From positions 1-55,432 of the forward strand of contig WFSI01000149.1 of the NCBI GenBank assembly GCA_015486105.1: 55,432 nt of DNA, in the 5' to 3' direction. Every line of letters begins with the position of its first letter. Position 1 is the first letter of the stretch. The notes beneath the pieces were generated by a model. It was given only the letters and a program-made list of their open reading frames with translations. It was not told where the DNA came from and did no database searches. This document shows, piece by piece, positions 5,272 through 33,195 of this stretch. The position numbers and the translations under genes were made by a program. The DNA is from Aquificota bacterium. GTDB lineage: Bacteria > Thermosulfidibacterota > Thermosulfidibacteria > Thermosulfidibacterales > B14-G1.

Positions 5272-5283
5272 CTCTAACCTCCT

Positions 5284-6624
5284 TTATGGGAAAATAATTC
5301 CAGATTTACCGTCCCAATCATCAGGTGGCGTTCTGCTTATGAAATCTGTCCACTTGCCGATAGCCCCCTTATCCTCCAACTCCTTGATCTGATCCTGAGT
5401 GAGGCCCAGGTACTTAGTGAACACATACTCGTTGTCAAAACCAACGGGCTTGCCCATCCATTTGACCCTACCAGGGGTCTCAGACAACTTAGGTGCCACA
5501 CCTTCCTCTACCCCATCCCCAAGAATAGAGTCGTCAATGTGCCACTTGAACCCCCTCACCTCAAAGTGCTCATCGTAGTAGTGGTCCCGCCCATTATGGA
5601 CCTTTTCTGCAGCAAAGCCGTATTTTTGAGCCTTCCTGTCTACCACCTGCCAGGTATTGTTTGCTACCCAGTCTTTCACTATGGAGAGGAGCTCCTCTGC
5701 ATTGCCTTCCTTTGTTCTTTCAAGGTTGGTGACAAATCGGGGATCGTTGACCAACTCCGGCTTACCCATAGCCTCGCAGAGACCCTTAAACTGCTCATCG
5801 GTGGTGGTGGCCACTGCCACCAGCTCCCCATCCATACTCCTGAAGATGTCAGAGGGGCATATGGCCACGTCCCTGTTACCGTACCGGTCCCTATCCTTGC
5901 CGGTGAGGTGGCAGTAAAGCCAGGTCCAATCCATAGCCCTCATAATGTTCTCTGCCTGAGACATCTCCATATACTGGCCCTTGCCAGTCCTGTCCCTGTA
6001 GTGAAGGGCCACAAGAATACCCACAGCAGACATGAGACCCCCGTAGTAATCGCAGAGCCAAATCCCACTCTTCATAGGGAGCCTGCCAGGAAATCCCGAT
6101 ATCCAGGCCTCCCCAGACTCCGACTGGGCAATGGCATCGTATGAGGGCCTCACTAAATATGGACCCCACTGGCCAAAACCGTTATTGGCAATGTAGATAA
6201 GACGGGGATTAATTTCAGCCAAATCCCTGTACCCAACACCCCACCTGTCCAAGGTGCCACCCCGAAGATTCTCCACCACCACGTCGGACTGGGCCACCAG
6301 CCTCTTGAAGAGCTCCTTGCCCTCTTCTTTATGGCAGTCAATGGCCACATGAAGCTTGTTTCTGGCACACTTAAGCCAGCCCAGTGCCTGATTCTTCCAG
6401 AACCATCCCCATGGAGTAAGGGAACGCATGGTGTCTCCCATGCCAGGCAACTCCACCTTGAAGACGGTAGCACCAAACTCCGTGAGATAGGCAGGGGTAG
6501 AAGGACCGAGGATCAACGTACAAAACTCTACAATCTTGATATCGCTCAGGGCCTCAGGTTTGGAAAAGACCTCCTCCATGGAGAAAAGTTCCCCAGCCCA
6601 TTCAAAATAATCACTCTTAGCCAT
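5284..6624 (-). CDS. Family III CoA-transferase, B-type subunit, copy 1
   Basis: 446 aa. Motifs [27 protein letters not shown] and [11 protein letters not shown]. Paralog of 7987-9324. Confidence 0.85.
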
Positions 6625-6636
6625 TGTTTCTCCTCC

Positions 6637-7968: not shown

Positions 7969-7986
7969 CTTCTCACCTCCCCAGAT

Positions 7987-9324
7987 TTACAGATAAAAGA
8001 GTCCCTTCTTGCCATCCCAATCTTCAGGTGGCTTTGCTCCAACCCTATCTCCCCACTTACCTATAACACCCTCCTCTTCCAATTCCTTGAGACTATCTCG
8101 GGACAAACCAGCTATTCTCAAGAACACATGCTCATTGTCAAAACCCACAGGCCGAGAAGTCCATTTCATCCTGCCAGGGGTCTCAGACATCTTAGGAACG
8201 GGGCCACATTCCACCACGGTATCGTAAAGGGGATCCTCAAACTCACACACCGTACCACGAGATCTCCAATGCTCGCTTTCATACTGGTCCTTGGCATTGA
8301 GAACACGAGTGGCAGCAAAACCGTACTGGGCACCCAATTCGTCTATCTCGGCCATAGTCTTACCTTTAGTCCAATCAGCTACAATGCCTAAAATAGCCTT
8401 GGCATTCTCGTCCTTGAGCCTATCCAAGGGATCTTTAAACCTGGGGTCATCAGCTAGCCCCGCCTTGCCCATAGCCTGGCAGAGGCCCGAGAACTCCTCT
8501 TCAGAAAAGGCAGCAATAGCTATGAAACCGTCCTTGCACTTGAAAAGATCCGAAGGACATATAGCCAGATCCCGATTCCCCGCTTGGGGCCTGTTCTCAC
8601 CGGTAAAGTGGGCATACAGCCAACTCCAGTCAAGCCACCGCATGAGGTTCTCACCCTGGGAAAACTCAATGAACTGACCTTTACCCGTCTTCTTGGCGTA
8701 GTAAAGGGCCGCCAGTAAGGCAATAGACGAAGTACAAGCCCCGGTAAAATCTCCAATCCACACCCCAGCCTTCAGAGGAGGCCTTCCCGGAAATCCCGAG
8801 ACAGACATTAGCCCGCTTACCGATTGAGCAATAGCATCGTAGCTGGGACGCCCCTGGGCATAAGGACCCCACTGGCCAAAACCATTGTTAGCCAAATAGA
8901 TGATATGAGGGTTCACCTCCTTCAAATCCCTGTAACCCACACCCCAGCTATCCAAGGTGCCTGCCCTCATGTTTTCCACCACCAAGTCAGATTTCTTAGC
9001 CAGATCAAGGAAAATCTCTCTCCCCTCGGGTTTTCTCAGGTCCAGTCCCACGTGATACTTGTTATGATTCTGCTCCTCAAAGGCAGGGGAAAGGTTCTTC
9101 CAGAAGAAACCATAAGGGGTAACGTATCTCATGGTGTCTCCAGCCCCAGGCAGCTCCACCTTGATCACCTCCGCTCCAAAATCCGTAAGCCAATCGGGAA
9201 CAGCCGGACCAAAAATAAGGGTACACACCTCCAGCACCCGCACCCCCTTCAGAGCTTCAGGCTTTAAAAACGCCTTTTTGGGGTCCAAAACCTCAGCCGC
9301 CCATTGGAAAAAATCACTACCCAT
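7987..9324 (-). CDS. Family III CoA-transferase, B-type subunit, copy 2
   Basis: 445 aa. Motifs IFGPAVPDWLTDFGAEVIKVELPGAGD and [11 protein letters not shown]. Confidence 0.85.
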   Translation of the reverse strand: MGSDFFQWAAEVLDPKKAFLKPEALKGVRVLEVCTLIFGPAVPDWLTDFGAEVIKVELPGAGDTMRYVTPYGFFWKNLSPAFEEQNHNKYHVGLDLRKPEGREIFLDLAKKSDLVVENMRAGTLDSWGVGYRDLKEVNPHIIYLANNGFGQWGPYAQGRPSYDAIAQSVSGLMSVSGFPGRPPLKAGVWIGDFTGACTSSIALLAALYYAKKTGKGQFIEFSQGENLMRWLDWSWLYAHFTGENRPQAGNRDLAICPSDLFKCKDGFIAIAAFSEEEFSGLCQAMGKAGLADDPRFKDPLDRLKDENAKAILGIVADWTKGKTMAEIDELGAQYGFAATRVLNAKDQYESEHWRSRGTVCEFEDPLYDTVVECGPVPKMSETPGRMKWTSRPVGFDNEHVFLRIAGLSRDSLKELEEEGVIGKWGDRVGAKPPEDWDGKKGLFYL

Positions 9325-9441: not shown

Positions 9442-11049
9442 TCAATCAAGGGTTAGAGAAATGGTCCTATTCCTTTCCCTGATGAGGGGAACCAAAAGGA
9501 GAGAAAAGAGGCATGCCATCCCAAAGATTACCATGCAGTCCTGAAAGGCAAAGATATAACTCTTCAGGGTGATCACCCCATGGAAAAAAGCCTTCACCTG
9601 AGTAGTAGCCCAATTTGGAGGTTGGCTATGGGCCATGAGATAAGCCTTGAGACGACCATAAGAAGGAACAAGGAGAGGATGAGAGGGATCAAGTCTCCTT
9701 GTCATCCCCAAAAAGTGAAGGTACTTCCTGGACTCCATATGGGAGGTGGCGAAAGCCGTACCTACTGCCCCCGCTATGAAACGGATAACATGAATCATAG
9801 AAGCCCCTGTATCCAGGTGCCTATGGGTAAGGCAAGCCAAACTCATGTAATTTAGGGGAGTGAAGACTGCCCCCACAAAACCTATATAAAAAGCTATGAG
9901 CATAACGAGGGTAGCTTTGCTTGTATACCCATCGGCATGGCTGAGAAAATAAAAACCCACAGCCATGCCTATCAAAGCCAGGGCCATGATCCTTCTTCCA
10001 CCAAACCGATCAGTAAGGCGGCCCACCATCACTCCCATGAAACCATTCATCAAGGCCCCAGGCAGTATGAGGAGACCCGTGAGGAAGGTAGGATACATCC
10101 TGAATTTCTCCAGGTATATAGGTATAAGATAGAAGGAACCGTAGATCGCTCCACCAAAAACCAAACGTATAAGCATGGTAGCTGAGAAATCCCTAACGCC
10201 AAAGATGGTGAGATCAATGAAGGGATGCTCTTGGCGGAGCTCCCACCACAGAAACAAGGGAAAGGTGACCACCGCTATAGCGAAAAGGATAAGGATATAG
10301 TCCGAGGCCAGCCATCCCTTCTCCTGTCCCTTAGAGAGAGCAATAAGGAGGGATGAGATGAAGGCCGTAGAGAGGATAAAACCCATGATATCAGGGGGTA
10401 CCCTCTTGTCTTTACCTTCCCCAGGTCTAAGGATGAGGTATGCCCCATACCAGAGGGTGATGCCTATGGGAAGATTGATGTAAAAGGCCCAACGCCAACT
10501 GAAATGCTGGGTCATGTATCCCCCCAGAGTAGGCCCCAGAGCAGGGCCCATGGTGGCGCCCAAACCAATGAGTCCCATAGCCAGACCACGTTGCTTAGGG
10601 GGAAAAGCCACAAAAATGAGCGAGGTGACTGTGGGAATAACAAGTCCTTCCCCTACTCCCTGAAGCACCCTACCTAAGATCATCTCCCCCATGCTGGTGG
10701 CCTGACCACAAAAAGCGCTCATAGTGGTGAAGAGGGCCAACCCAAGGAGACAGAGATTCTTGTAACCCAACCTCTCCGAAAGACGCTTAAACATGGGCAT
10801 AGTAACCGCCGCTGCCACCATATAGGCTATTACTACCCATTGAATATCATAAAAATCCGCATTTAAAGCCGCCATCATGTGGGGAATGATCACATCCACC
10901 ACGGTGGTATCCAGAATCACCATGAGGAGAGATGGAACTGCCACTGCCGCCACCAGCCAGTGGTAATGATCTATCCTATCTTTCTCTAAGGCTAAACCCG
11001 TATCAAGAGCGTCAATAGCCACGGATCCCCCAGAAAGATCCCTTTTCAC
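9442..11049 (-). CDS. MFS transporter, DHA2 (EmrB/QacA-like, 14-TMS) family
   Basis: 535 aa and highly hydrophobic. Has MFS motifs near the N-terminus (LDTTVVDVIIPHM, GRLTDRFGGRR-type loop). The GTG start overlaps the upstream ALDH stop (GTGA). Confidence 0.8.
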   Translation of the reverse strand: MKRDLSGGSVAIDALDTGLALEKDRIDHYHWLVAAVAVPSLLMVILDTTVVDVIIPHMMAALNADFYDIQWVVIAYMVAAAVTMPMFKRLSERLGYKNLCLLGLALFTTMSAFCGQATSMGEMILGRVLQGVGEGLVIPTVTSLIFVAFPPKQRGLAMGLIGLGATMGPALGPTLGGYMTQHFSWRWAFYINLPIGITLWYGAYLILRPGEGKDKRVPPDIMGFILSTAFISSLLIALSKGQEKGWLASDYILILFAIAVVTFPLFLWWELRQEHPFIDLTIFGVRDFSATMLIRLVFGGAIYGSFYLIPIYLEKFRMYPTFLTGLLILPGALMNGFMGVMVGRLTDRFGGRRIMALALIGMAVGFYFLSHADGYTSKATLVMLIAFYIGFVGAVFTPLNYMSLACLTHRHLDTGASMIHVIRFIAGAVGTAFATSHMESRKYLHFLGMTRRLDPSHPLLVPSYGRLKAYLMAHSQPPNWATTQVKAFFHGVITLKSYIFAFQDCMVIFGMACLFSLLLVPLIRERNRTISLTLD

Positions 11050-12236
11050 TCTCTCAAAAAACCCTGGGTAAGCTCCAAGGGATAGACCAGGGCCCCCCCT
11101 CTCCTCACAATCTTAGGGCCTCTCATCTCCAACACCCAACCACTGTCCCTCCTGCCACCAGAGGGGTCACGGGGATTTAGATAGAGAAACTGGGGGTCCC
11201 AATAGACACTTCCATAGAGACGCTCCAGGGATTTTTTACCCCCAGGGCATTCTCCAAAGGCATAGGCAATCAAGGGATAACGGGTCTTCAAAGCCTCTCT
11301 CAAAATAGCCGAGGCCGAGGTCTCAGCCTTGATAGCCAAAAAGGGACCAAAGACCTCAATGTCCGGTATGTGCTTGGTGAGAACCACTGTGGGATAAAGC
11401 CACTCACCCTGGGGAGGCCCTCCCCAAAGAAGGGAGCCTTTCATCATCTCCAATCCCCTTTGAAAGAGCTTTCGAGTCCGTTCTGCCTTGATAGGCCCGT
11501 AGTCCACTTGGGGATCCAAGGGATCTCCCACCTTTATCTCTCCCACCTCAGCCAAAACTCCATGGATAAAGGGTTCAAGGAGATCTTTATATACCAGGGC
11601 CCTCTTGATGGTGGTACAGTACTGCCCCCCATTGAGAAAGGCCCTTCTGGCAGCAAAAATAGCCGCCTGCTCCACATCAGCCCCAGGAAAAACCAAGACC
11701 GGTGGCATTCCCCCAGGCCCCGCATATATAATCTTGTCGAAAAAGTCTATGGCCCTGGCATACACCCTCCCCACAATGCCAGATCCAGAGATAAAAAAGA
11801 CCCTCACCTGTGGATCATCTATGCACTCCTGACCAAAAGCCCGGTTGTCCTTATCCAGCACTACTTCAATCCTGTCCTCCCACGGGGCACACACTTCCCC
11901 TATAAGCTCAGCCGCTCTAGGAGTAAGAGAGGAAAAACTTACCCGAATCCTATTTCTACCCAGAAGAGCTGCCCCTCCCCACCGGGCAAACATGACTGTG
12001 GGAGCATCGTAGGGAAATACAGCCCCAATAAGACCGTAGGGCTCCCGCCCCTCCACCAAGGGGGCATCCTCCTTCATAGTATCAAGATGCTTAGCGCTCA
12101 GGCTGATCTCCGCCTTAGTCACCTTTATCGCCTGACCAATGTCCAAGGCCAAGGCCTCACAAAAGGACCCTTCCCTTTTCTCTATCTCCCTGCCTAAAAA
12201 GGCCAGCATCTCTATCCTTTCCCCCAGTTCCATCAC
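11046..12236 (-). CDS. Aldehyde dehydrogenase-superfamily protein, short form, general-base Glu replaced (ALDH-B)
   Basis: 396 aa. The catalytic Cys region GGQYCTT and the EVFGPF motif are present. The position equivalent to the ELGG glutamate reads YAGPGG (Ala). Confidence 0.7.
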   Translation of the reverse strand: MMELGERIEMLAFLGREIEKREGSFCEALALDIGQAIKVTKAEISLSAKHLDTMKEDAPLVEGREPYGLIGAVFPYDAPTVMFARWGGAALLGRNRIRVSFSSLTPRAAELIGEVCAPWEDRIEVVLDKDNRAFGQECIDDPQVRVFFISGSGIVGRVYARAIDFFDKIIYAGPGGMPPVLVFPGADVEQAAIFAARRAFLNGGQYCTTIKRALVYKDLLEPFIHGVLAEVGEIKVGDPLDPQVDYGPIKAERTRKLFQRGLEMMKGSLLWGGPPQGEWLYPTVVLTKHIPDIEVFGPFLAIKAETSASAILREALKTRYPLIAYAFGECPGGKKSLERLYGSVYWDPQFLYLNPRDPSGGRRDSGWVLEMRGPKIVRRGGALVYPLELTQGFLRE

Positions 12237-12244
12237 CCCCCTCC

Positions 12245-13267
12245 CTAAGATAATCTCTGGGTTATACCCTCACAGGCTCTATCTAACTGCTTGACCTCCT
12301 CTCTCCAAATGGGTATCTCATTCACGCCTACCACTCCACCTAAGTCCACTGTTGCAGGGACAGCCATGATCCCATGGAAACCATAAAACTCGCCCCTAAG
12401 GACGACATGCAATGGACCACAAAACCATCCCCTGGCCAATAGGCCTTCCAGTATCATCATGATAGCACTGGCAGGACCGACCACGGTTTTAGAGCCACTG
12501 TAGTGGGTGAGCCATGGCCGTATGAAAAGTCTGTAAACCATGGGCATCCGATCCAGTTCTCTAAAAATCTCTACCAAAGGCCTCCCCTTCATATCGCTAA
12601 TCAGACGTGACCAGGCCTCCATAATGGGTTCATCGGTTTCAATAGCCAACTCCCTCTCTATCCTCTCCTCAAGAGCCCCCTTCCCCCAACCAGAAACCAT
12701 CACAGAACTCCACAGAGGCACCATAAGGGGCCCGTGATCCCCAAGGACCATGGCAGATACATAAGCCATGGGAACCTGCCAAGCCCGGGCGATCTCCTTC
12801 CTAAATCTCAGGGTATCCAACAAACAGCCCATGCCTACCACCTTCCTGGGACCTATCCTTTCTGCAAACACCTTCACTCCCAGCTCTACAGGATTCGAAA
12901 CATGGATCACCATGGATTCAGGAGAAACCAAGTCTGCATAATATCGAAAGACCTCTAAATTATAGGACCTGAGCTTTTCCCGGGTAAACTCCGTTGTGGG
13001 AGATCGTGGAAAGGTAACACCCGCCGTCATGATCACCAACTGGGCCCGGATCTCACAGGGATCTATGGAAACCTCTATTGGAGGTAAAACGCTGCCAAAG
13101 GCGTCCTTCATGTCCTCTACCAGGCCATGGATCAGGTTCTTAGAGGTTCCTGATGAGCGACTCACCAGGAGCACCCTGTGGTCCTTGACCAAAAGTCCCG
13201 AGCTCAACAAAAGGAGCAAAAGCCGCTGTCCAATGTCACCACTGGCACCAATTATGGCTATGGTCAT
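12245..13267 (-). CDS. Lactate/malate dehydrogenase-family 2-hydroxyacid dehydrogenase, divergent
   Basis: 340 aa. N-terminal Rossmann IAIIGASGDIGQ, substrate Arg motif LDTLRFRKE and catalytic His in LGDHGP. Clear paralog of 28526-29575. Confidence 0.75.
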   Translation of the reverse strand: MTIAIIGASGDIGQRLLLLLLSSGLLVKDHRVLLVSRSSGTSKNLIHGLVEDMKDAFGSVLPPIEVSIDPCEIRAQLVIMTAGVTFPRSPTTEFTREKLRSYNLEVFRYYADLVSPESMVIHVSNPVELGVKVFAERIGPRKVVGMGCLLDTLRFRKEIARAWQVPMAYVSAMVLGDHGPLMVPLWSSVMVSGWGKGALEERIERELAIETDEPIMEAWSRLISDMKGRPLVEIFRELDRMPMVYRLFIRPWLTHYSGSKTVVGPASAIMMILEGLLARGWFCGPLHVVLRGEFYGFHGIMAVPATVDLGGVVGVNEIPIWREEVKQLDRACEGITQRLS

Positions 13268-13280
13268 CCCTGTTGCCCTC

Positions 13281-14558
13281 TCATTCCTCCAGGATGCTTG
13301 TCTCCAAGCTCAGAAGCTTTGGCCCCTGCCTCAACCTAAAGGCCTCACCCAGGGCATCCCACTCCCATCCCGAGTATCCATAGCCACCTACGGCCTTTAC
13401 CACAAAGGCCCCCTTCCAGGACTCTGACCTGGGCTCGTTTAAGCTCACGGTGCCGAATTTGCCAAATACAAGCTTCGGCACATCGTGCATATAAGGCTCA
13501 CCTCTCAGGGCCGAGGTGACCATTTCTGCCTCATCATATCCATAAACCGCTGCCCTCAGGCCGTATCGGTTCCGCTTGGCCATAGAGATCACCTCATCAG
13601 GGGTGTCAAAGGGGATCACAAAGCTCACAGGGCCAAAGGTCTCCTCCTGGACACCCAACATATCAGGCCTGGCATCTGTTACAATAGTAGGGTATACAAG
13701 GTTTCCCTCAACCCTACCCCCAAGGAGAATGCGGGCCCCCTTCTGCCTTGCATCCTCCAGCTGCCTCTCTATGTTCTCCACCGCAAGGGAGCTGCCCAAA
13801 GGGGTGATCACCGTCTCCGGGTCTTCCGGATCCCCCACCTTTGCCTCCTTGCTCTTCTCTACAAAAGCCCCTAAAAACTCACTGTAGATGCCCCTCTGGA
13901 CATACACGTTCTCGGGAGCCGTGCAGGTCTGGCCAGAGTAGGAGTACTTAGCTTCAAAGAGGTCATCTATAGCCTCCCTAAAGGGGGCATCGTTAAAAAC
14001 GATGAATGGGTCACTACCCGGCCCCTCAAATATGAGCCGCTTTCTATGCGCCAAAACTTCTTCTTCGTATGGGAGCACAGTTCGCTCCGAGCCGAAAATA
14101 CAAATAGCCTTCACACTCCCATCCCCGATGGCCCACTCTATGAATTCCTTTCCAGGGCGGTAATCAAAGGAGACATCATCGCCAAAGATAGGGTGATAGA
14201 TGGATTCCAGGAGACAAGCTATATCCGAACCCCTGGAGGAAAACTTCACCCTCACCCTGTTCCCAGCCAAGTATATGGTAGCGATCACAATATTGAGCCA
14301 GGCACTCCCGTTATAGGAGAGGGCCAGGGCCACACACTCACCTTCCCTGCAGAGGGGTCTTCTGCCATCAAGGATCTCCTTTACCCTCCAACACATCTGC
14401 AGGCGATCTTTGGCCACAGAGATCTCCTGGTGGTTATCCCGATATGAAAAACCAATGTCCTTGATGGCCAAAGCCACCAGCTCGTCCCTATGCGCCTCCA
14501 GCTCATCAGCAAGCCGGTATATTCTGTCAAGCCTCTCGGCAAATGTGATCCCACCCAT
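13281..14558 (-). CDS. Aldehyde dehydrogenase-superfamily protein, short form (ALDH-A)
   Basis: Motif FEGPGSDPFIVF carries the catalytic Glu, SGQTCTAP carries the Cys 34 residues later, and EETFGPV is present. The tracked ORF starts at 14606 and overlaps paaI. I prefer ATG 14558 (GTG 14576 is also possible). Confidence 0.75.
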   Translation of the reverse strand: MGGITFAERLDRIYRLADELEAHRDELVALAIKDIGFSYRDNHQEISVAKDRLQMCWRVKEILDGRRPLCREGECVALALSYNGSAWLNIVIATIYLAGNRVRVKFSSRGSDIACLLESIYHPIFGDDVSFDYRPGKEFIEWAIGDGSVKAICIFGSERTVLPYEEEVLAHRKRLIFEGPGSDPFIVFNDAPFREAIDDLFEAKYSYSGQTCTAPENVYVQRGIYSEFLGAFVEKSKEAKVGDPEDPETVITPLGSSLAVENIERQLEDARQKGARILLGGRVEGNLVYPTIVTDARPDMLGVQEETFGPVSFVIPFDTPDEVISMAKRNRYGLRAAVYGYDEAEMVTSALRGEPYMHDVPKLVFGKFGTVSLNEPRSESWKGAFVVKAVGGYGYSGWEWDALGEAFRLRQGPKLLSLETSILEE

Positions 14559-14577
14559 TGTTTCTACCTTTTTCACA

Positions 14578-15015
14578 TCAACCTTCCGGCGGAAAGGGCT
14601 TGTCAAATCGGTAAACCGTACCCTTAGTAAGGGCGATCATTTCTCCCCTGGCATTGGTCACGGTCATGATGTAAGTAGCTGTCCTTTTCCCTAAATACCC
14701 CTCCTTCGCTTCGGCCAATATCCGCTCACCCAGGGAAACGGCCTTCAAAAAGCTCATGCTCACCTCCAGTGCCAAGGCCAAGCTTCCATAACTGTTGCTG
14801 GCCAGGGCAAAGGCCAAATCACTTAAGGAGAAAAGCACACCACCATGGCAAACGTCGGCTGCATTCAAGTGCATATCCTCCACGGTGAGAGCTACCTTTG
14901 CGTATCCGGGGGAGACCTCCAAAACCTCAACCCCTAACAGATCTATCAACCTGTCCCTACTGGCAATGTACTCCTTCACCCCCTCAGCCACGGCCTTTGA
15001 AGCATCATTTCCCAT
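14578..15015 (-). CDS. PaaI-family hotdog-fold acyl-CoA thioesterase, copy 1
   Basis: 145 aa. [23 protein letters not shown] is the PaaI active-site segment. Confidence 0.8.
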
Positions 15016-17965: not shown

Positions 17966-19630
17966 TTAGAACTTATAGGTAAGGGTAAGAGCAAAGTTAT
18001 GGACATAGCCCCATCCCTTCGCCTTTGCCTCAGGATGCTCATCCTCTGTGCCATAGGTTTCATCAAGGTTTTCGCTTCTTCCGTAGTCGATTATTTTGTG
18101 ACCTTCAATCATGGTATACTGATAAGCCAAATCCGCTATTACTTTCCCATGAAAGAGCTTGAGACCAGTACCCAAGGAAAATATGTGCTTACTCGCCCCA
18201 GGCCAGGTGGTATCATAGGTGTTGTGGGGCACAGAACAAGGATCATAGAAGTATCCACCCCTTAAAGCCAACCAGTTGAAAAGCTGATACTGTACTCCAA
18301 TCTTGGGTTGGATCATGTTCTTCCAGTGACGAGGATAATACTTCTTATCCCCAGGGCTAAGGGCCTTGGCAATATTGCTGGGAACCCCGTTATTCACAAA
18401 ATAATCATACAAAAGCCTATTGTTCCAGTGAACCCGGTAATGATGTATTCGAGCCCAGTTCACCCACTTCAGATCAGCTTCTATAGACAATTTAGGAATA
18501 GGCCTGTAGAGAATACCAAACTCGAGCTGGTCTGGATGATCTATCCACGTATGTCCGCTGGCCTCGTCTATCTCGTTCCCTGAGCCATCGTACATCTTCG
18601 TTTTTAGGAAAAACCGGGTCTGGGCCAATCCCCTGTAAGTCAACCCCACCTGGAGCTTATCACTAAACCTATAAATCACACCTATGTTAAAGGACCAGTT
18701 GAAATCATCCGTAGCTCTGGTTCGCATCTTGCCGTCTTTGAGTCTGGCCAACAGGGGAGAGACCTTCACCTTTACAAAGTTTTCAGCAAACTCCGGATTT
18801 GAGGAGGCCAAACCCTGAACAAGGTTGAGAAAGCCCTGAACAGCAGCAGGATTCCCAGCCAAAACCTGGTTCAGGTCAATGCCATTGGCAGCAGCCAAGG
18901 CCTGGAGGTTAGGGTCCTGGCTGAACATGAGATAAGCGGCAGCCGTATCGGGCACAAGAGATGAAGTAGCAGGGGTCTGGAAGAATGGTAGGGATCCGAA
19001 ATGGTAGGTGTAACTCCCAAAGCCTCCGGCTGTTGCCATAGTCAGGGGACTCATGTAAATCCTGCGCATGACACCAGAATGGGAGTCTCCAAAAGCCAAG
19101 CCCACTCCTATAAAGAGTTTCTTAGTAAGTTGAATGGCAAAGGTGGGAGACGCCCTCACCACCCTGTAATAATAAGACTGGTAGCTGTTATAGGCACCTG
19201 AATTATCCCGAGGGTTAGAGTTCCACCTAAGCCAGAATCCATAAGGCACATAGGTGGCCACACCAAAAGCAGCTTTCTTCCCAAAGAGCTTAAAAGGATA
19301 TACCACGCCTCCATGTGGATAAATCAATATCTGGGTACTGTCCGCCACGCTGGTCTTATGGCCCGAATCATGATCATTATGATAATCCAGTTTCATGCTC
19401 ACGGCAGGGTTGACAAAGGAAGATCCCACAGAGACTTGAGGCCTCTCAAGCTGGGCGATACCCGCCGGGTTGTAATACATGGCAGAAAAATCATCGGCCC
19501 GGGCGGTGAAAGCGGTACCCAAAGCAATAGCCTTGGCCCCGACCCCATAGGTATCAACAATATCCCCATAAGCTGAGATGGTGGCCACGAAAAAAAAGAC
19601 AAAAGCCAAAAACCCCCATACCCTTCTCAC
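17966..19630 (-). CDS. Outer-membrane hydrophobic-compound channel, FadL/TodX (OMPP1) family
   Basis: 554 aa. Signal peptide MRRVWGFLAFVFFFVATISAYG, N-terminal GxGAKAIALGTAFTARADD hatch motif, alternating beta-strand pattern, C-terminal LTLTYKF. Confidence 0.8.
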   Translation of the reverse strand: MRRVWGFLAFVFFFVATISAYGDIVDTYGVGAKAIALGTAFTARADDFSAMYYNPAGIAQLERPQVSVGSSFVNPAVSMKLDYHNDHDSGHKTSVADSTQILIYPHGGVVYPFKLFGKKAAFGVATYVPYGFWLRWNSNPRDNSGAYNSYQSYYYRVVRASPTFAIQLTKKLFIGVGLAFGDSHSGVMRRIYMSPLTMATAGGFGSYTYHFGSLPFFQTPATSSLVPDTAAAYLMFSQDPNLQALAAANGIDLNQVLAGNPAAVQGFLNLVQGLASSNPEFAENFVKVKVSPLLARLKDGKMRTRATDDFNWSFNIGVIYRFSDKLQVGLTYRGLAQTRFFLKTKMYDGSGNEIDEASGHTWIDHPDQLEFGILYRPIPKLSIEADLKWVNWARIHHYRVHWNNRLLYDYFVNNGVPSNIAKALSPGDKKYYPRHWKNMIQPKIGVQYQLFNWLALRGGYFYDPCSVPHNTYDTTWPGASKHIFSLGTGLKLFHGKVIADLAYQYTMIEGHKIIDYGRSENLDETYGTEDEHPEAKAKGWGYVHNFALTLTYKF

Positions 19631-19654: not shown

Positions 19655-21340
19655 TTAATCCCCATCCTTACCTTCCCTTTTCAAAAGCTCTTTTTCTCTC
19701 AACTCTCTCCTCAAAACCTTACCTATCATGGATTTAGGTAGGTCTTTAACAAATTCCACTTCCTTAGGCAATTTGTAAGGAGCGAGTCTCTCTTTGCAAA
19801 ACTCTATCACCTCTTCCTCCGTCAACTCACATCCTTCTTTAGAAACCACATAGGCCTTCACCACTTCTCCCTTATACCCGTGGGGAACACCTATAACCGC
19901 TGCTTCCAGGATACGAGGATGCTCGTATAGCACCTCTTCCACCTCCCTGGGATATATATTGTATCCACCAGATATTATCATATCCTTCTTTCTATCCACT
20001 ATATAGAAGTACCCATCCTCATCCATACGGGCCATATCCCCCGTATGAAGCCATCCCTTCCTTAGGACCTGGGCAGTTTCATCAGGCCTGTTCCAGTAGC
20101 CTTTCATCACTTGAGGACCCTTCACGGCCAACTCCCCCACCTCTCCTTTAAGAAGGCCCTCTCCCGTATAAGGATCCACTACCTTGGCCTCCGTATCTGG
20201 GAAAGGTATCCCTATGGAACCAAACCTGCGCCTATTCCACACAGGGTTAGCATGGGTGACAGGAGATGCCTCTGAGAGACCGTAGCCCTCCACCACTCTG
20301 CCCCCTGTAATGCGCTCAAATTCCTGAGCCACCTCCACAGGCAAAGGGGCTCCTCCACTGATGCAAACATCTACGGAAGAGAGATCCACCTTCCTTTGAG
20401 AGGCATATTCGTTTATAGCCACATAAATAGTAGGGACACCGGGAAACATTGTAACCCTGTACTTACCTATAAGCCTCACCACCTCCTTCACATCGAAGCG
20501 GGGCACCAGTATCAGGGTTGATCCCATGTAAAACCCCACATTCATGGCCGCTGTCATACCATAGACATGAAAGAAAGGCAGCACGCACAGAACCACTTCC
20601 TTGCCTTCCTGGGACTTATAGGTCCAAGCCCTGGTCTGGATTGTATTGGCCACCAGGTTGGCATGGGTAAGCATGGCTGCCTTAGCCAGCCCTGTGGTGC
20701 CCCCCGTATACTGAAAAACCGCCACATCTTCCTGAGGATCCACTTCTACCAAACGAAGGTCCCTCTCCTCCCTGATCAAAGGGATAAAATCTATCACCTT
20801 GTTCCCCCATTTACCCCTGTTCAGCTTAGGCTCTTTTCTAACCTTCAAAGGAAAAAGGAGATTCAAGGGAAAGGGCAAAAAGTCTTGGAGCTTGGCCATT
20901 ATGAGGGCATCTACCATCCCTTCAGCCAGAATAGTTTCAAATTTATAGGCCAGAAGATCCAGAGTAATCACTACCCTGGCCCCTGAATCCTTGAGGAGGA
21001 GATCCAACTCCCGAGGGGTGTACATAGGATTAAACTGAACCACCACAGCCCCAATCTTCAAAAGGGCATAGTAAGCCATGGGATAGGCTGGACAGTTGGG
21101 CAAAAAAAGGGCAACCTTGTCTCCTTTATCCACACCCAATGCCTGGAGAGAAGCCGCCAGATTGAGGGTATAGCGATAAAGCTCTCTGTATCTAATCCTT
21201 TTTCCAAAAAAGACCAGGGCTTCCCTCTCTCCGGATACCCCCATACCCCTCTCCAACATGGAAAAAGCGTTAACCAAGGGATAATCCAAATGGGGTGGTA
21301 CCTCCTGGGGATAGAACCTCAACCAGGGTTTCTCCATCAT
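19655..21340 (-). CDS. Long-chain fatty acid--CoA ligase (AMP-forming, FadD-like)
   Basis: 561 aa. AMP-binding motif YTGGTTGLAKAAMLTH, plus GYGLSEASP, WLHTGDMARMDEDGYFYIVDRKKD and GKVLRREL. Confidence 0.9.
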   Translation of the reverse strand: MMEKPWLRFYPQEVPPHLDYPLVNAFSMLERGMGVSGEREALVFFGKRIRYRELYRYTLNLAASLQALGVDKGDKVALFLPNCPAYPMAYYALLKIGAVVVQFNPMYTPRELDLLLKDSGARVVITLDLLAYKFETILAEGMVDALIMAKLQDFLPFPLNLLFPLKVRKEPKLNRGKWGNKVIDFIPLIREERDLRLVEVDPQEDVAVFQYTGGTTGLAKAAMLTHANLVANTIQTRAWTYKSQEGKEVVLCVLPFFHVYGMTAAMNVGFYMGSTLILVPRFDVKEVVRLIGKYRVTMFPGVPTIYVAINEYASQRKVDLSSVDVCISGGAPLPVEVAQEFERITGGRVVEGYGLSEASPVTHANPVWNRRRFGSIGIPFPDTEAKVVDPYTGEGLLKGEVGELAVKGPQVMKGYWNRPDETAQVLRKGWLHTGDMARMDEDGYFYIVDRKKDMIISGGYNIYPREVEEVLYEHPRILEAAVIGVPHGYKGEVVKAYVVSKEGCELTEEEVIEFCKERLAPYKLPKEVEFVKDLPKSMIGKVLRRELREKELLKREGKDGD

Positions 21341-22035: not shown

Positions 22036-22565
22036 GGTCCATAAATGAATGAGCCTTCACTCATTTTAACCAAGATGCTCAACTCCATCTACCATCCCAC
22101 ATCGCGCCTTATCCACTCAACAGAGAGAGGAACCCGTCTCTAATGGGAACCTCATTCCCCTCATTAAAATATTTTCTTATCACAGTAGAACCCCTCTTCA
22201 AAGGGGATCTTTTCCATGGCCCTTTCCTCGTCACCTACCCAGCAACACCCTCAAGAGCCTCAAGGCCCCTTTCAGCACAAAGTACTTCAAGTCCGCCCTA
22301 TTCCTCACCCGTTTGCTTAGGGAAAGAGGGAAAAGCTCTTTTCATCTGACGGCCAGATAGGAAGATTACTAAACAGTAACTCGAGGAAGGATAGATCTCT
22401 GCCAACACCTCTTTCGTAGCTGGATTAAGTGAAAACTACGGGGATTCCACAAGGCCACCCCCTCTGTCCTCTTTAAAAAAGCAATGTAACCGATGGAGCA
22501 CATCATTGACAATAAAAGAATCAGGCCTATCTTTGGGAAACGAGCATTATACATAACAAGGATTA

Positions 22566-22781
22566 ATGGGAGAGAAGATGCACAGAGAGGAAAGAGAGAG
22601 ATTCATACCCTGCAAAACATGCCCCTTTCTGGCAGGCATAAAGGGCGACAGGATACTATGCCTAAATCCCCAGGTGACAGGGATGGAGGGGGTACCCGTG
22701 CCCATCTCCTTAGACCATAAGCCCCCCTGTCCTTACCAAGAAGAGATGGAAAAAACGCGTCAGGAGAAATCAATATTCTAA
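22566..22781 (+). CDS. Possible small Cys-containing protein (hypothetical)
   Basis: 71-codon ORF in a 775-bp gap. The local plus strand is purine-rich like real coding strands here. Four Cys (CKTC...C...C). I recognise no homology. Confidence 0.2.
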   Translation: MGEKMHREERERFIPCKTCPFLAGIKGDRILCLNPQVTGMEGVPVPISLDHKPPCPYQEEMEKTRQEKSIF

Positions 22782-22810
22782 TGGTATAACCAGTGCCAAG
22801 GGATAACCCC

Positions 22811-29575: not shown

Positions 29576-29619
29576 AGAATCACCCCCATATAAAGATATC
29601 CAAATAAGATGGGACCTGT

Positions 29620-29655
29620 CAAAAAAGACCTGGGGGCCTTCAACAGGCCCCCAGG
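29620..29655 (-). terminator. Strong intrinsic terminator after the porin gene
   Basis: Minus strand reads CCTGGGGGCC-TGTTGAA-GGCCCCCAGG followed by TCTTTTTTG. 10-bp GC-rich perfect stem, 30 nt after the stop at 29686. Confidence 0.8.
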
Positions 29656-29685: not shown

Positions 29686-30153
29686 TCAGAATTTCCACAT
29701 AAGGCCCACATTCATGATGTAGGCCTCGCCATCTGTATCTTCATACAGATATTCCTCCTTATCGTCGTACCACCGATAGGTGAATCGGGAAGTAGCGGTA
29801 AAGTTCTTCCAGAAGTTCCAATCGACTCCAACAGAAGCGTCAACACGCTCCATCTTCAGATCGTACCAATCGGACATATCATTCATGTCACTCGTGTAGG
29901 TAATAACGAACCACGGATCGTACCCAGGCTTATAGCTGGGATCAACGTGACCATCTAAATCTATGGTACCAAAGGGATTGCCGAAATCGGGGTTATCAGC
30001 ATCGGCTTTGGACCAAGTATAGGTAAGGTCACCATAAAGCCTGAGGGCCTTGATGGGAGTGAAGTCAGCGCTTAAGTAACCCACGAAATTGCGGATGTCG
30101 TAATCTACCCTGTCACAGAGTGAGCCAACCTGGCTCACGAAACTATGGCCGCC
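29686..30153 (-). CDS. C-terminal segment of the MtrB/PioB-like outer-membrane barrel (same frame as 30154-32010, beyond an in-frame TGA)
   Basis: Tracked as 29686-30138 with a GTG start, but codons 30153-30139 (GGHSF) are open and in frame with the upstream ORF. Ends in the aromatic OMP beta-signal NVGLMWKF. Confidence 0.65.
   Translation of the reverse strand, partial: GGHSFVSQVGSLCDRVDYDIRNFVGYLSADFTPIKALRLYGDLTYTWSKADADNPDFGNPFGTIDLDGHVDPSYKPGYDPWFVITYTSDMNDMSDWYDLKMERVDASVGVDWNFWKNFTATSRFTYRWYDDKEEYLYEDTDGEAYIMNVGLMWKF
30114..30147 (-). other. SECIS-like RNA hairpin 6 nt downstream of the in-frame UGA
   Basis: Minus strand reads CAUAG-UUUC-GUGAGCC-[AGGUU]-GGCUCAC-U-CUGUG. It has a 7-bp perfect upper stem and a 5-bp lower stem (one G-U pair). 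The apical loop contains GGU 24-26 nt after the UGA. Confidence 0.45.
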
Positions 30154-32010
30154 TCACCCACCAAACAGGTTCAAGTCAAACCTGGTCTTGTATTTGTCAT
30201 ACTCGTAATTAGCCCCCAAATTGAATACCAGGTCGTTCAGGGGTGAAAGCCAGAAATTGATACCAGCCATATAGGTCTCTCCCATCCAATCGGAGTCATC
30301 GTTGTCCTGATACTTGTATTGGAGATTCAGGGTAGTGGAATAGCGCCCAGATGGTGTCCAGGTGGTGAGCAGCTCCACCTTTTGGCTGTCCCGGGGCACG
30401 TTAGAAGCATCCTTCCTACGATACTGGTTCCGGAAGATCTCGTAGTAAGGTACACCCCCCGGTTTACCCAAGTCTCTGTGCTCCAAGCAGATACCATTGT
30501 GATTCTGAAATTCGTCATCCTGGTGTTCATACTTGTAAGTAAGCCTGAAATTGACCGTCTTCAAGGGGCGACCCAAAAGGGAGATCTTTACCTTATGTAT
30601 ACTTGTATCCTTATCGTCCAGAAACTCCTCATCCCTAAGGAAAGAATCGTAGTCCTTCCACTTATCGTTACCCCTGTTGATCCTCTGATACTCGTAGCCT
30701 CCCCTTAATGTATAGTGCCTGAAGAGCCTGTACCTGAAGTCAAAGCCCAACTCCGTTACATCCCTATCCATATTGGACTCTCTTGTGTAGTCGAATGTCG
30801 AAATAGGGATCTGATACCCAGGAACAACCCCAGTGAACGCCGGGTCATTGGACATCTTGGCCACATCCACATTGACGCTGTCGTTGTTCAATACATAATA
30901 CCTACCTTTCACAGTGACTGTAAGGGCATTGTTCAGCAGAGTGCTGGTGACCCTACCGGCGTATGCATTCATATTGTATCTTTTCTGGGTATAGTTGTTC
31001 TCAACGCCAGCATACACATAAGACCCATACGCCGTAGTTTGATAAGGCAAGTCCATCCTCACCTTCACCTTGTCCGTGGTCTTCTTCACGTCAGGCACCT
31101 CAGCATATCCGCTCCTCTCACCGTCATAGAGGAGCCTCTCTGGGAAGAAGGCCTGTTCCCCAGGGGGCGCGTATACTTTGTCAAAGACCCACTGCGGGGT
31201 TTCTGCCTCATTGTCGTAGTGTCTCCAACTGTGAAAATAGCTGGCGGTCATAATGCCGTACTTGGCAGTGAAACCAGCCACTACGTCCCTGGTATGCTCA
31301 TTTACCCTCCGGCCATTGCCAACGATGTGGCAAGGCGTACACTTACCCGACATGAAGGTGGCCTGCCGCCACCCCCTCTTGTTAATTTCCGAGACCTTCA
31401 CCTCAGGCACTATGTAGGGAAAGAAGGGCAACCGCATTTTTACATGGGCCTGCTGGTGGCTCCTGAAGATCTGATAGTCCCTTCCCACATCCATATCATC
31501 GGCGGTCACCATCTGGGCGCCTCCCAAGTGAAGGGAGGGATCATCCGTCCTCCAGAATGGATTGAAGGCCACAAGACCGTTGTTTACCCCATTGCCAGGT
31601 ATGTTCTTGGGAAACCTGGGCTCGCCCTTGTACAAGTAGTCATGCTGGAACCGATGGATGAAGCTATCGTATGAATAGTCTATCTGGAATACCCGGCCAA
31701 GGTCCATAAACGCCGACCAATTTTTATCATCCTCGTTATAGTAGAAGGCGTGGGCATCAGCTCTGAAAAGGCCAATATCGGCCTTCAAATTCACCTCGCC
31801 CTGGGCACCAGACTCAAGGGGTTCATACTCCCCCACCTTGGTCTTATCGTCGTTGTGCCCCACAAACCGATAGCTCGGGAGCACATTGACCTTGAACTTC
31901 ACAGGGCCACTCTCCCCAGCCCTGGCCACCCCCATCCCCAGGAGGGAGAGGGAAAAGGCAAGCAGTACCACTAAAAACCATCCTCTCTTCATCATCTCCT
32001 CCCCCCTCAT
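30154..32010 (-). CDS. N-terminal segment (618 codons) of the MtrB/PioB-like decahaem-associated outer-membrane beta-barrel, ending at in-frame TGA 30154-30156
   Basis: Signal peptide MKRGWFLVVLLAFSLSLLGMGVARA. Long amphipathic beta-strand pattern rich in Y/D/N/R. The start overlaps the cytochrome stop (ATGA). Contains CTPCH at residues 224-228. Confidence 0.65.
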   Translation of the reverse strand: MRGEEMMKRGWFLVVLLAFSLSLLGMGVARAGESGPVKFKVNVLPSYRFVGHNDDKTKVGEYEPLESGAQGEVNLKADIGLFRADAHAFYYNEDDKNWSAFMDLGRVFQIDYSYDSFIHRFQHDYLYKGEPRFPKNIPGNGVNNGLVAFNPFWRTDDPSLHLGGAQMVTADDMDVGRDYQIFRSHQQAHVKMRLPFFPYIVPEVKVSEINKRGWRQATFMSGKCTPCHIVGNGRRVNEHTRDVVAGFTAKYGIMTASYFHSWRHYDNEAETPQWVFDKVYAPPGEQAFFPERLLYDGERSGYAEVPDVKKTTDKVKVRMDLPYQTTAYGSYVYAGVENNYTQKRYNMNAYAGRVTSTLLNNALTVTVKGRYYVLNNDSVNVDVAKMSNDPAFTGVVPGYQIPISTFDYTRESNMDRDVTELGFDFRYRLFRHYTLRGGYEYQRINRGNDKWKDYDSFLRDEEFLDDKDTSIHKVKISLLGRPLKTVNFRLTYKYEHQDDEFQNHNGICLEHRDLGKPGGVPYYEIFRNQYRRKDASNVPRDSQKVELLTTWTPSGRYSTTLNLQYKYQDNDDSDWMGETYMAGINFWLSPLNDLVFNLGANYEYDKYKTRFDLNLFGG

Positions 32011-33065
32011 CTCGTTAGTCTGCTACCACCGCCCGGTGTAGCCAGGGACGGCAGGTCGGAACCATGAATGGCCGGATGGCACTCTGTGCACCTGGTGGTC
32101 ATCACCATCTGCATGGCATGGCTCTCCGGGGCAAGAGATGTAGGCCCCCCGCTGGCCCCATGGGACTGGAGGTAAGCAGTATCAGGATGAATCGCAGAGT
32201 GGAAATGCAAACCATGACACTGGAGACATAGATATGGCTCGTTTTGCTTCAAGAGGTTATCCGCCACTGTACCATGAGGCTCATGACAGATGGTGCAATC
32301 CTCCACCACAGGGGCATGCTCGAAGGCAAAGGGACCCTCTTTATCAGCATGGCACTTGTAACACAGCTCGTTCTTGCGCTCATCTGTCCTCAAGAGGGGC
32401 TCCACCGCAGAACCATGAGGATTGTGGCACTCAGAGCAGGTCATCTTTCCTTCCTTGATGGGATGGTGGTTGGGATAGTTGGTCTTTGCCATAATGTCCT
32501 TGTGGCAGGTGAAGCAAAGCTCAGGCTCGGGCTTCTTCAAAAGGGCATCCTTCACATACTTGTGCCTGTAGCCCAGCTTGTCCCTGTAGGCCACCTTGTC
32601 CTTGTTCCCATGGATAGTGTGGCACTTGACGCAGGAAACATTATTGAGAGCGTGCTCCGAACCCCGCCAGTCCATGGTCTCTCCACCGGTGTGGCACCGA
32701 GCACAAATAGCAGAAGCCTGAACAGGCTTTAGCTTGGCAGGATTGATGATGTATTTGGGATCCTCCTCATCAATGTGCTTACTGCCAGGGCCATGACAGG
32801 CCTCACAACCTGCCACTTCCATGCTGGGCTTGGTCTCAAAGGCCGCTATCCTGCCGTGAATAGTGTCTTTGAAGCTATCTACCAGATCCTCGTGGCAGTC
32901 GGCGCAGGCCTCAGAACCCACATACTTGGCCCCCTCAATAACAGGAACCTTGGCATTCACCGACTTCTCCTTGACCTCTTTCATAGAGGTACAGGCACCA
33001 AGACCCACCAGGAAAAGAGCCATTACCAAGACGGTCAGTAACCTATTCCACCGCATTCTCCTCAT
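32007..33065 (-). CDS. Decahaem c-type cytochrome, MtrA/DmsE/PioA-like, with a lipoprotein signal
   Basis: Ten CXXCH motifs: CADCH, CEACH, CARCH, CVKCH, CFTCH, CSECH, CYKCH, CTICH, CLQCH, CTECH. Start placed at MRRMRWNRLL (ATG 33065, preceded by GGAGAGGTGGAG). Lipobox LVGLGAC. Confidence 0.85.
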   Translation of the reverse strand: MRRMRWNRLLTVLVMALFLVGLGACTSMKEVKEKSVNAKVPVIEGAKYVGSEACADCHEDLVDSFKDTIHGRIAAFETKPSMEVAGCEACHGPGSKHIDEEDPKYIINPAKLKPVQASAICARCHTGGETMDWRGSEHALNNVSCVKCHTIHGNKDKVAYRDKLGYRHKYVKDALLKKPEPELCFTCHKDIMAKTNYPNHHPIKEGKMTCSECHNPHGSAVEPLLRTDERKNELCYKCHADKEGPFAFEHAPVVEDCTICHEPHGTVADNLLKQNEPYLCLQCHGLHFHSAIHPDTAYLQSHGASGGPTSLAPESHAMQMVMTTRCTECHPAIHGSDLPSLATPGGGSRLTR

Positions 33066-33195
33066 CTCCACCTCTCCTTGAGTAACCTTATGAAAAGAAG
33101 CAACACCTAAATCCTTATTCACCTATTTAAAAAACCTACCCCTGTAACCTGCTTTCCTCTCTACCACCCCCCCTCCTAACATTGTACTTTAACAC

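Follow-up and report, generated by a model that had tools for sequence, protein, structure and literature searches.

A conserved in-frame UGA with a downstream SECIS-like hairpin predicts selenocysteine in an outer-membrane electron-conduit barrel of the GSU2204/OmcL family

In the 55,432-nucleotide stretch of DNA analysed here (the window), we identified a complete selenoprotein gene candidate of the GSU2204/OmcL type, an outer-membrane barrel whose reading frame contains one internal UGA. Judged by comparison with related loci, this UGA and the hairpin behind it form a genuine and conserved selenocysteine (Sec) signal in a predicted outer-membrane electron-conduit barrel. We consider it highly probable that the gene specifies an MtrB-like barrel of about 770 residues, paired with an OmcK-type cytochrome, in which the UGA is most likely read as Sec by way of the hairpin and SelB. 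A first-pass annotation of this DNA had proposed SECIS-directed Sec at the UGA of an MtrB/PioB-like conduit barrel. That central reading is upheld by the conserved UGA/Cys column, the linked hairpin, the match to NF041027 and the MtrB-like fold of a homologue. Because the family is already catalogued (GSU2204/OmcL, NF041027), the proposal was a correct call, not a discovery.

The gene runs from 32010 to 29686 on the minus strand and comprises 774 codons including the UGA (30156-30154), with a terminal TGA stop at 29688-29686. It had been recorded as two ORFs, 30154..32010 and 29686..30138 (both minus strand). As described in the first-pass annotation, the two share one common frame and are separated by the TGA and five sense codons (GGC GGC CAT AGT TTC); the TGA is the sole interruption, and neither half is otherwise damaged. 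The read-through product of 774 amino acids is ...FDLNLFGG-U-GGHSFVSQVGSLCDRVDY...NVGLMWKF, with the predicted Sec at residue 619. The 155 codons past the UGA (29689..30153, minus strand) specify the final strands of the barrel together with the C-terminal beta-signal NVGLMWKF, and this part gives a weak match to OMP_b-brl. The intrinsic terminator of the two-gene operon (29619..29655, minus strand) also lies past the UGA, about 30 nt beyond the full-length stop. It is strong, with an 11-bp stem of 9 GC pairs (29655-29629) followed by the T tract TCTTTTTT, and nothing comparable was found after the internal TGA. The earlier placement of both the beta-signal and the only terminator beyond the UGA was thus accurate, as were all the factual statements of that annotation that we checked. 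In its longest form the ORF opens at 32010, where its start codon and the stop of the upstream gene overlap as ATGA. Translation probably begins further in, at the ATG at 31995 or the one at 31992, which are preceded by a GGAGGAG Shine-Dalgarno sequence. Public gene calls give a 612-amino-acid protein starting at M7 for the N-terminal part and a separate hypothetical protein of 150 amino acids for the C-terminal part.

A fresh nonsense mutation would look alike, with a single in-frame stop and both halves otherwise intact, and the first-pass annotation had named such a mutation or a base-call error as the trivial alternative. We compared related loci. TGA occurs at the identical column in all 27 distinct related UGA-type loci, which share 33-76% identity, and two independent source-sample contigs also carry it. 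The terminal stops of the UGA-type loci differ (TAA, TAG or TGA), whereas TAA and TAG never occur as the internal stop, which is TGA throughout. Past the UGA, the frame extends for 146-161 codons in the 27 related loci, to an OMP C-terminal signal ending in F, and both frame and protein sequence are kept in all orthologues (36-86% identity). A profile search for the family returned 506 clusters, and 115 top representatives reach the UGA column. Of these, 103 stop within three amino acids of the column and 12 read on, so that by sequence prediction about 90% of them use UGA instead of Cys. The TGA conserved down to 33% identity, the downstream frame maintained as protein and the 103 of 115 family representatives ending at the same place refute the idea that an ordinary barrel gene was recently broken by mutation, has decayed into a pseudogene or was split by faulty sequencing or assembly; its probability is negligible.

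Substitutions at this column are informative about the residue itself. In nine more distantly related loci the codon is TGC or TGT (Cys), and one homologue with 58% identity has Gly and lacks the hairpin, so the residue is dispensable in at least one lineage. An alignment of orthologues had been suggested earlier as a check on the Sec reading. In it the column is UGA or Cys, and the hairpin covaries with compensatory changes across the 27 UGA forms. A further suggestion, that Sec might form a selenylsulfide with the Cys located 13 residues past the UGA, did not hold for the family. The Cys is present in the window protein, but it is missing in about half of the UGA-containing orthologues, and we reject this pairing as a family feature for that reason.

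The core SECIS-like hairpin (30120..30138, minus strand) has a 7-bp stem formed by the 5′ arm GUGAGCC (30138-30132) and the 3′ arm GGCUCAC (30126-30120) around the loop AGGUU (30131-30127). It begins 15 nt past the UGA, with 22 nt from the UGA to the apical loop, and the GGU of the loop lies 24-26 nt past the A of the UGA. All 27 distinct sequences form the inner 5 bp, and the loop GG is invariant. Compensatory double changes occur at two core pairs (GC to CG in five sequences, CG to GC in two), some of them via non-synonymous codon pairs (Ser to Arg together with Gly to Ala). For covariation the hairpin scores 0.212, versus 0.101 in shuffles, none of which reached 0.212 in 500 trials, and slid controls gave at most 0.06. 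Moreover, the hairpin was found in all 27 UGA forms but in none of seven Cys forms, nor in the one Gly form. Synonymous variation is also at its lowest at the hairpin: codon entropy across the whole 355-codon region is at its minimum from +0 to +8 codons past the UGA, and the GTG, CAG and GTT codons in this stretch are invariant.

The first-pass annotation had drawn a larger, two-stem fold (30114..30147, minus strand), in which a lower stem pairs CAUAG (30147-30143) with CUGUG (30118-30114) around the core. The core stem of that fold is kept and covaries, as described above; the lower stem is weakly conserved, with 66.7% of cells paired across orthologues and some double changes at three pairs, and its conservation is doubtful. 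The complete fold (CAUAG/UUUC/GUGAGCC/AGGUU/GGCUCAC/U/CUGUG) has a calculated energy of -15.6 kcal/mol, and the 7-bp stem alone -12.7 kcal/mol. RNA folding of 30100-30160 (minus strand), another check proposed at the time, gave a non-significant result: the minimum free energy has z = -1.2, 25 of 200 shuffles are equally stable, and the minimum free energy structure is different from the conserved hairpin. We therefore discarded thermodynamics as evidence; the significance of the hairpin derives from the orthologue comparison, its stability being no better than chance. An Rfam scan of the window at gathering thresholds detected tRNA-Ser only and no SECIS family, and an E-value scan of 30000-30250 yielded one chance match, to CRISPR-DR, and no SECIS model.

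A second reading is that the UGA is a genuine, conserved stop and that two polypeptides, one with about 21 strands and one with the last five, are made by re-initiation at a GTG five codons on and assemble in trans, with the hairpin serving re-initiation or mRNA stability. The products would be of about 68 and 17 kDa, against about 85 kDa for the full-length window protein and about 90 kDa for that of Geobacter. Gene callers everywhere give two ORFs, and a GTG or ATG follows soon past the stop in the lineage of the window. However, homologues with Cys at the UGA column make a single chain, and a separate C-terminal fragment would have no signal peptide for export. The five codons between UGA and GTG are conserved as protein (GGHSF or GGQGM) and contain no Shine-Dalgarno sequence. 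The hairpin has the spacing and the GG(U/C) loop of SelB-binding elements and vanishes exactly where the UGA is replaced, and NCBI curates the GSU2204 family as selenoprotein. We regard the two-polypeptide arrangement as very unlikely.

The UGA might instead be translated as one of the standard amino acids, Trp, Cys, Gly or Arg, through a near-cognate or suppressor tRNA, context-dependent read-through or a reassigned code. The Gly homologue (GGT/GGA region at the UGA column) would fit such decoding, and so would the lack of visible Sec machinery in the DNA covered. ARAGORN found no tRNA-Sec in the 55-kb window or in 47 fetched loci. Pfam annotation of the approximately 45 window genes detected no SelA, SelB or SelD, and none of selA, selB and selD was present in any of the 47 fetched loci; for a 55-kb piece such negatives are uninformative. 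Against a changed code, TGA is the terminal stop of 22 of 47 window genes, the barrel gene itself among them; it is an ordinary stop here, and thus the code is not reassigned. The alternation of Cys with UGA and the UGA-linked hairpin are hallmarks of Sec, not of leaky read-through. In addition, the GSU2204 family occurs in established Sec users, for example Geobacter sulfurreducens, and the deep-Sep study names Thermosulfidibacterota as one of the clades that its Sec-utilising organisms come from. Decoding as a standard amino acid is in our judgement extremely unlikely. Separately, we scanned the window for in-frame TGA codons between open segments and obtained 89 candidates. All but the barrel UGA were rejected as out of frame inside known genes or as sequence that is not coding-like. 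The translation of a candidate at 22605 (minus strand) led us to drop it, its CxxU-like context being fortuitous.

Family searches are in agreement with decoding of the UGA as Sec. The N-terminal part of the window protein matches NF041027, "GSU2204 family CXXCH-containing (seleno)protein," at 480.2 bits (E = 1e-143). NF041027 is an equivalog_domain model with a cutoff of 350 bits that covers the part up to the Sec. Positions 9-580 of its 580 correspond to residues 26-618, and the match stops one residue before the UGA. The published G. sulfurreducens selenoprotein aligns with the window protein from end to end (E = 3e-77, 26% identity); U619 falls on U676, and CXXCH on CXXCH. The first-pass annotation knew of no Sec in a porin of this kind, which the literature contradicts: two selenoproteome reviews, of 2022 and 2026, count the GSU2204 family among the selenoproteins, and it is included in the deep-Sep data set, in addition to its NF041027 entry. 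For the family the 2022 review refers to Zhang and Gladyshev (2008), whose main text does not mention the GSU2204 family. In the extracellular electron transfer literature the gene pair is named OmcK/OmcL, and surveys of electron-transfer conduits discuss OmcK/OmcL without mention of Sec (PMC10553843). In G. sulfurreducens, growth on hematite or Fe(III) oxide induces GSU2203/2204 (PMC4070692). Our literature search retrieved no report that demonstrates Sec or selenium experimentally in a family member, the listings found being computational.

The barrel protein contains a single CXXCH haem-c attachment motif, C224-T-P-C-H228 in GKCTPCHIVG (31327..31341, minus strand). The motif is invariant in 28 homologues, and exactly one CXXCH per barrel was counted in 31 loci with an intact barrel ORF. 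The partner gene upstream (32007..33122, minus strand) encodes a decahaem c-type cytochrome of the GSU2203/OmcK type and MtrA/DmsE class, with 10 CXXCH motifs, Pfam matches and a score of 474.8 bits to NF041028 (cutoff 325). A 10-CXXCH gene is located directly upstream of the barrel in 31 of 32 loci. An AF2 model of P0007, a homologue with 58% identity, has 26 strands (pLDDT 75.6, pTM 0.73), and among PDB structures it matches MtrB best (6r2q_B; E = 1.9e-20, TM 0.63/0.74). The window protein itself has a partial match to PF11854 (MtrB_PioB) over residues 356-577, at 21.8 bits, and several orthologues have a precomputed PF11854 match. Strand counting and parity on this medium-confidence homologue model, in which both loops have pLDDT < 50, put the haem motif and the Sec alike in loops of the long-loop face of the barrel, which is presumably extracellular.

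We propose that the gene would give rise to one outer-membrane protein, an MtrB-like 26-strand beta-barrel with one covalently bound haem at its CXXCH. The mRNA hairpin 15 nt downstream of the UGA, a G+C-rich stem of 5-7 bp with an A-G-G-U/C-U loop, would recruit SelB and Sec-tRNA(Sec), by which the UGA is most likely decoded as selenocysteine. The barrel is probably co-transcribed with the MtrA/DmsE-like decahaem cytochrome, which by analogy with MtrAB would sit within the barrel and pass electrons across the outer membrane; the two-protein assembly and the direction of flow are inferred. More speculatively, the Sec could lie at the tip of a long surface beta-hairpin and constitute, together with the barrel haem, the terminal surface redox site of a two-component conduit that operates without an MtrC-type cytochrome. 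It might then act as an axial or second-sphere haem ligand, or as a nucleophile on elemental sulfur, polysulfide or metal(loid)s. Thermosulfidibacter, Desulfuromonas and Geobacter are sulfur or metal reducers. We consider this surface role improbable.

The existence of Sec in the GSU2204 family is not new. The analysis connects the selenoprotein and extracellular electron-transfer conduit literatures and defines the SECIS of the window subfamily, and its practical value is in annotation. If the surface role is true, an extracellular selenolate in an outer-membrane protein would be unusual selenoprotein chemistry. Why a haem-bearing outer-membrane barrel would need a selenolate is a question testable in tractable hosts, as G. 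sulfurreducens carries GSU2204.

Among bacterial SECIS elements, for which E. coli fdhF is the paradigm and a bSECISearch consensus was reportedly given by Zhang and Gladyshev in 2005, the hairpin at 30120..30138 is typical in its position inside the ORF shortly 3′ of the UGA, in the 22 nt to the loop, and in a small apical loop where U or C comes after the invariant GG. It differs in that the loop GGU is about 4 nt farther from the UGA than G23/U24 of fdhF, the bulged U occurs in some orthologues only, and no Rfam SECIS model matches it.

The barrel resembles MtrB of the Shewanella MtrCAB complex (PDB 6R2Q, chain B) in its 26 strands, as predicted from the P0007 model, and in its neighbour gene for an MtrA/DmsE-type decahaem cytochrome (TIGR03508, 255.7 bits). 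In contrast, the PF11854 score of the window protein is below the gathering threshold of 23, the operon in the window has no gene for an MtrC-like surface cytochrome, and MtrB has, to our knowledge, neither haem nor Sec. Another parallel is ExtKL of G. sulfurreducens (GSU2937-2936, NF040886), a multihaem cytochrome with Sec from a gene cluster for an outer-membrane conduit. Like the window protein, it is a predicted selenoprotein of an extracellular-electron-transfer cluster, and its gene too was initially recorded as two ORFs on either side of a TGA. However, its Sec is in a periplasmic cytochrome and not in a barrel, and the protein families are unrelated.

The closest known system is GSU2204/OmcL of Geobacter. 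Both proteins have a single Sec, aligned U on U, and both genes follow directly on a decahaem gene of the GSU2203/OmcK type. Apart from the low identity of 26%, the window lineage differs in being a thermophilic hydrothermal-vent group near Thermosulfidibacterota/Thermodesulfobacteriota and in lacking the Cys at -7 found in most other members. In its public records the gene still appears as a pair of hypothetical proteins, and this holds for the cultured Thermosulfidibacter takaii (TST_0611) too, whose genome is complete.

The ORFs at 30154..32010 and 29686..30138, both on the minus strand, lie in one common frame, and the gap between them consists of a TGA (30156-30154) and five sense codons. 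Read through the UGA, the barrel gene encodes 774 residues that include a signal peptide, the stretch ...FDLNLFGG-U-GGHSFVSQVGSLCDRVDY... and the OMP C-terminal signal NVGLMWKF. The full-length stop is followed by a strong intrinsic terminator (29655-29629, minus strand). The first-pass annotation had described a single frame interrupted by the TGA alone, with the terminator beyond it, and both the ORF coordinates and the sequence agree.

A protein search identified 28 homologues. Of these, 25 (41-100% identity) terminate at the same alignment column, directly after (D/N)(L/F)F(G/A)G, and the remaining three read through it, two with Cys and one with Gly. The UGA was then compared in DNA from 27 genome loci and 17 metagenome loci. 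TGA occupies the predicted selenocysteine (Sec) column in every truncated-type locus, a set of 27 distinct sequences (33-76% identity at the protein level) whose source MAGs, from hydrothermal vents, bear the labels Thermodesulfobacteriota, Aquificota/Aquificales or Deltaproteobacteria. In each one, the frame past the UGA stays open for 146-161 codons to ...F-stop, and the terminal stops differ (TAA, TAG or TGA). At nine more distant loci, which belong to Desulfuromonas MAGs, one other Aquificales-labelled MAG and metagenome contigs, the codon here is TGC or TGT. The column, whose state in orthologues had been proposed as a check, is thus UGA or Cys in these loci. A profile search of 1.84 billion representatives recovered 506 family clusters; among the 115 top representatives that reach the Sec column, 103 end within 3 residues of it and 12 run on for at least 100 residues, so about 90% of them use UGA rather than Cys.

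The identical TGA is present on two contigs of the source sample. A recent nonsense mutation or a base-call error, the trivial alternatives named in the first-pass annotation, are refuted by a TGA column kept in 27 distinct sequences. TGA is also the terminal stop of 22 of the 47 genes in the window, including the barrel gene's own end. Because the column is conserved across loci and representatives, the frame beyond it is open and TGA is an ordinary stop here, a reassigned code is excluded along with mutation and error.

The predicted hairpin 3' of the UGA is present as GUGAGCC-AGGUU-GGCUCAC at 30138-30120 (minus strand). An outer stem, CAUAG/CUGUG, can form around it, and for the two stems together the folding energy is -15.6 kcal/mol. 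Taken alone the hairpin is statistically unremarkable, as the single-sequence MFE of a 61-nt stretch has z = -1.2 and a different structure, and no Rfam family matches the region. Across homologues, the inner five base pairs (5'-arm +21..+25, counting the U of UGA as +1) form in 27/27 distinct sequences, with compensatory double changes from G-C to C-G in five sequences and from C-G to G-C in two, and G-U wobble changes in ten. The apical loop has an invariant GG followed by U or C. The covariation score is 0.212, compared with 0.101 for shuffles (0/500 reach 0.212) and ≤0.06 for slid registers. The outer two pairs and the lower stem are much less conserved (lower stem paired in 66.7% of cells); of the two-stem fold first proposed, the core hairpin is conserved, and conservation of the lower stem is doubtful. 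Some compensatory changes involve paired non-synonymous codons (AGC to AGG, Ser to Arg, with GGC to GCC, Gly to Ala). Synonymous variation over 355 aligned codons reaches its minimum in 8-codon windows starting 0-8 codons past the UGA, where Val+6 (GTG), Gln+8 (CAG) and Val+9 (GTT) are fixed.

The 5-bp hairpin with its GG(U/C) loop is found in 27/27 UGA forms and 0/7 Cys forms, and is absent from the Gly form. It is internal to the ORF, with a spacing of 22 nt between the UGA and the apical loop and a conserved loop G. This geometry fits the bacterial SECIS consensus and that of E. coli fdhF, and a role in SelB binding is predicted. The comparison defines the SECIS of this subfamily, with covariation support.

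No selA, selB, selD or tRNA-Sec was found within the window, which holds housekeeping and catabolic genes, and no tRNA-Sec was found in 47 loci. The DNA comes from an uncultured lineage of hydrothermal vents. For its IleRS, identity is 78% to an enzyme encoded on an NCBI contig, 64% to the enzyme of a Thermosulfidibacteraceae MAG and about 60% to those of Syntrophobacteria. Thermosulfidibacterota are among the clades that the selenoprotein study deep-Sep drew from its collection of Sec-utilising organisms and set aside, which gives support for Sec use at the lineage level only.

A selenylsulfide with Cys+13 had been suggested. Cys-7 and Cys+13 each occur in part of the Sec forms, and the Cys forms have neither; as no nearby Cys is conserved across Sec forms, a conserved selenylsulfide is not supported. 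In P0007, a full-length, 58%-identical homologue from a hydrothermal-vent metagenome (L047 3776-6079), the Sec column is Gly (LFVG-G-GS) and the hairpin is lost. Thus, the Sec residue is dispensable in at least one lineage.

The family is present in cultured Thermosulfidibacter takaii. In the complete genome of strain ABI70S6, the C-terminal 154 residues of the barrel orthologue are annotated separately as "hypothetical protein TST_0611" (GenBank BAT71417.1), and on a Logan contig encoding an identical protein a 612-aa MtrB_PioB ORF terminates 15 nt upstream in the same frame. This split into two genes should be corrected in the annotation. Two separate contigs of one assembly (L045 and L046; ENA ERZ23495180, scaffold_131 and scaffold_110) both carry the locus and retain the TGA and hairpin. 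Their BLAST figures against the window over 21.8 kb are the same (99.9% identity, 22 mismatches), which suggests closely related co-assembled strains. In the Cys-form homologue carried by metagenome contig Ga0129302_1000895, an in-frame TGA occurs at a different position (L037 7714-7716, …ILRSGY*TKSGSNVP…); it aligns with an Arg of the window protein (…RNQYRRKDASNVP…) and is absent from the other loci. A nonsense mutation, an error and a second recoding site are all possible explanations.

Elsewhere in the window, the minus-strand stretches 3928-9324 and 9442-14606 together hold four tandem paralogous family III CoA-transferase genes of about 445 aa each, adjoined by genes for an MFS transporter and two aldehyde dehydrogenases and by an LDH/MDH-like gene, and then by a thioesterase and a TetR regulator. 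The region looks like a dedicated organic-acid catabolic cluster. The minus-strand genes at 17966-19630 and 19655-21340, for a FadL/TodX-type outer-membrane transporter and an adjoining acyl-CoA (AMP-binding) ligase, suggest uptake and activation of hydrophobic substrates, unrelated to the Sec finding. In the roughly 775 nt at 22036-22810, neither strand has a convincing ORF and Rfam gives no match; an in-frame TGA there (22605, minus strand) with CxxU-like context looks fortuitous.

The barrel protein has a single, invariant CXXCH haem-attachment motif, C224-H228 (GKCTPCHIVG; 31341-31327, minus strand). Exactly one CXXCH per barrel protein occurs in 31 of 32 loci, that is, in every locus with an intact barrel ORF, and in the same 31 a 10-CXXCH gene is directly upstream. 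The porin is therefore itself a monohaem cytochrome. Further invariant His residues (H119, H123, H260) include a possible second axial haem ligand.

An AF2 model of P0007, standing in for the window protein, has 26 transmembrane-type strands (pLDDT 75.6, pTM 0.73). The best-matching PDB structure is 6r2q_B, MtrB from the Shewanella Mtr complex (E 1.9e-20, TM 0.63/0.74). Each of the twelve connections that follow an even-numbered strand spans 2-6 residues, as periplasmic turns do. By strand parity, strands 7 and 8 flank the loop with the CXXCH, and strands 21 and 22 the loop with the Sec column. In this medium-confidence model, where both loops have pLDDT below 50, CXXCH and Sec lie on the side of the long loops, presumably the extracellular one, each at the tip of an unusually long hairpin, a topological hint that Sec and haem may face the cell surface.

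The N-terminal 618 residues match NCBIfam NF041027, "GSU2204 family CXXCH-containing (seleno)protein" (GSU2204_Se_pt_1), at 480.2 bits (cutoff 350), and the match reaches the last model position at residue 618, directly before the UGA. For the gene upstream (32007-33122), the score is 474.8 bits with NF041028, "GSU2203 family decaheme c-type cytochrome" (cutoff 325), and TIGR03508, the DmsE/MtrA-type decahaem model, gives 255.7 bits. With the conserved UGA/Cys column and the covarying, UGA-linked hairpin, the family match bears out the original reading of the UGA as Sec, and the case is as strong as sequence comparison can make.

In the best-supported reading, the hairpin would recruit SelB with Sec-tRNA(Sec) and Sec would be inserted at residue 619. 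The single-chain barrel with one haem would pair with the decahaem OmcK-type cytochrome, and, on the MtrAB analogy, the two may conduct electrons through the outer membrane.

A 2022 review (PMC9312934) and Table S1 of deep-Sep, whose supplement prints the Geobacter sulfurreducens member with its U, both count the GSU2204 family among the known selenoprotein families of prokaryotes; in the literature we found no experimental proof of Sec for any GSU2204-family member. Work on electron transfer refers to the pair as OmcK/OmcL and describes a putative porin:cytochrome conduit that is induced in Geobacter on hematite and magnetite (PMC4070692). In the thermophilic syntroph HotSeep-1, homologues show high expression, according to a paper that leaves selenocysteine unmentioned (PMC10553843). 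Our results bridge the selenoprotein catalogue and this OmcKL literature. The barrel gene adds a new but mis-annotated member to a selenoprotein family already in the catalogues and is not a new kind of thing. Its product aligns end to end with the G. sulfurreducens member (26% identity, E 3e-77), U on U and CXXCH on CXXCH.
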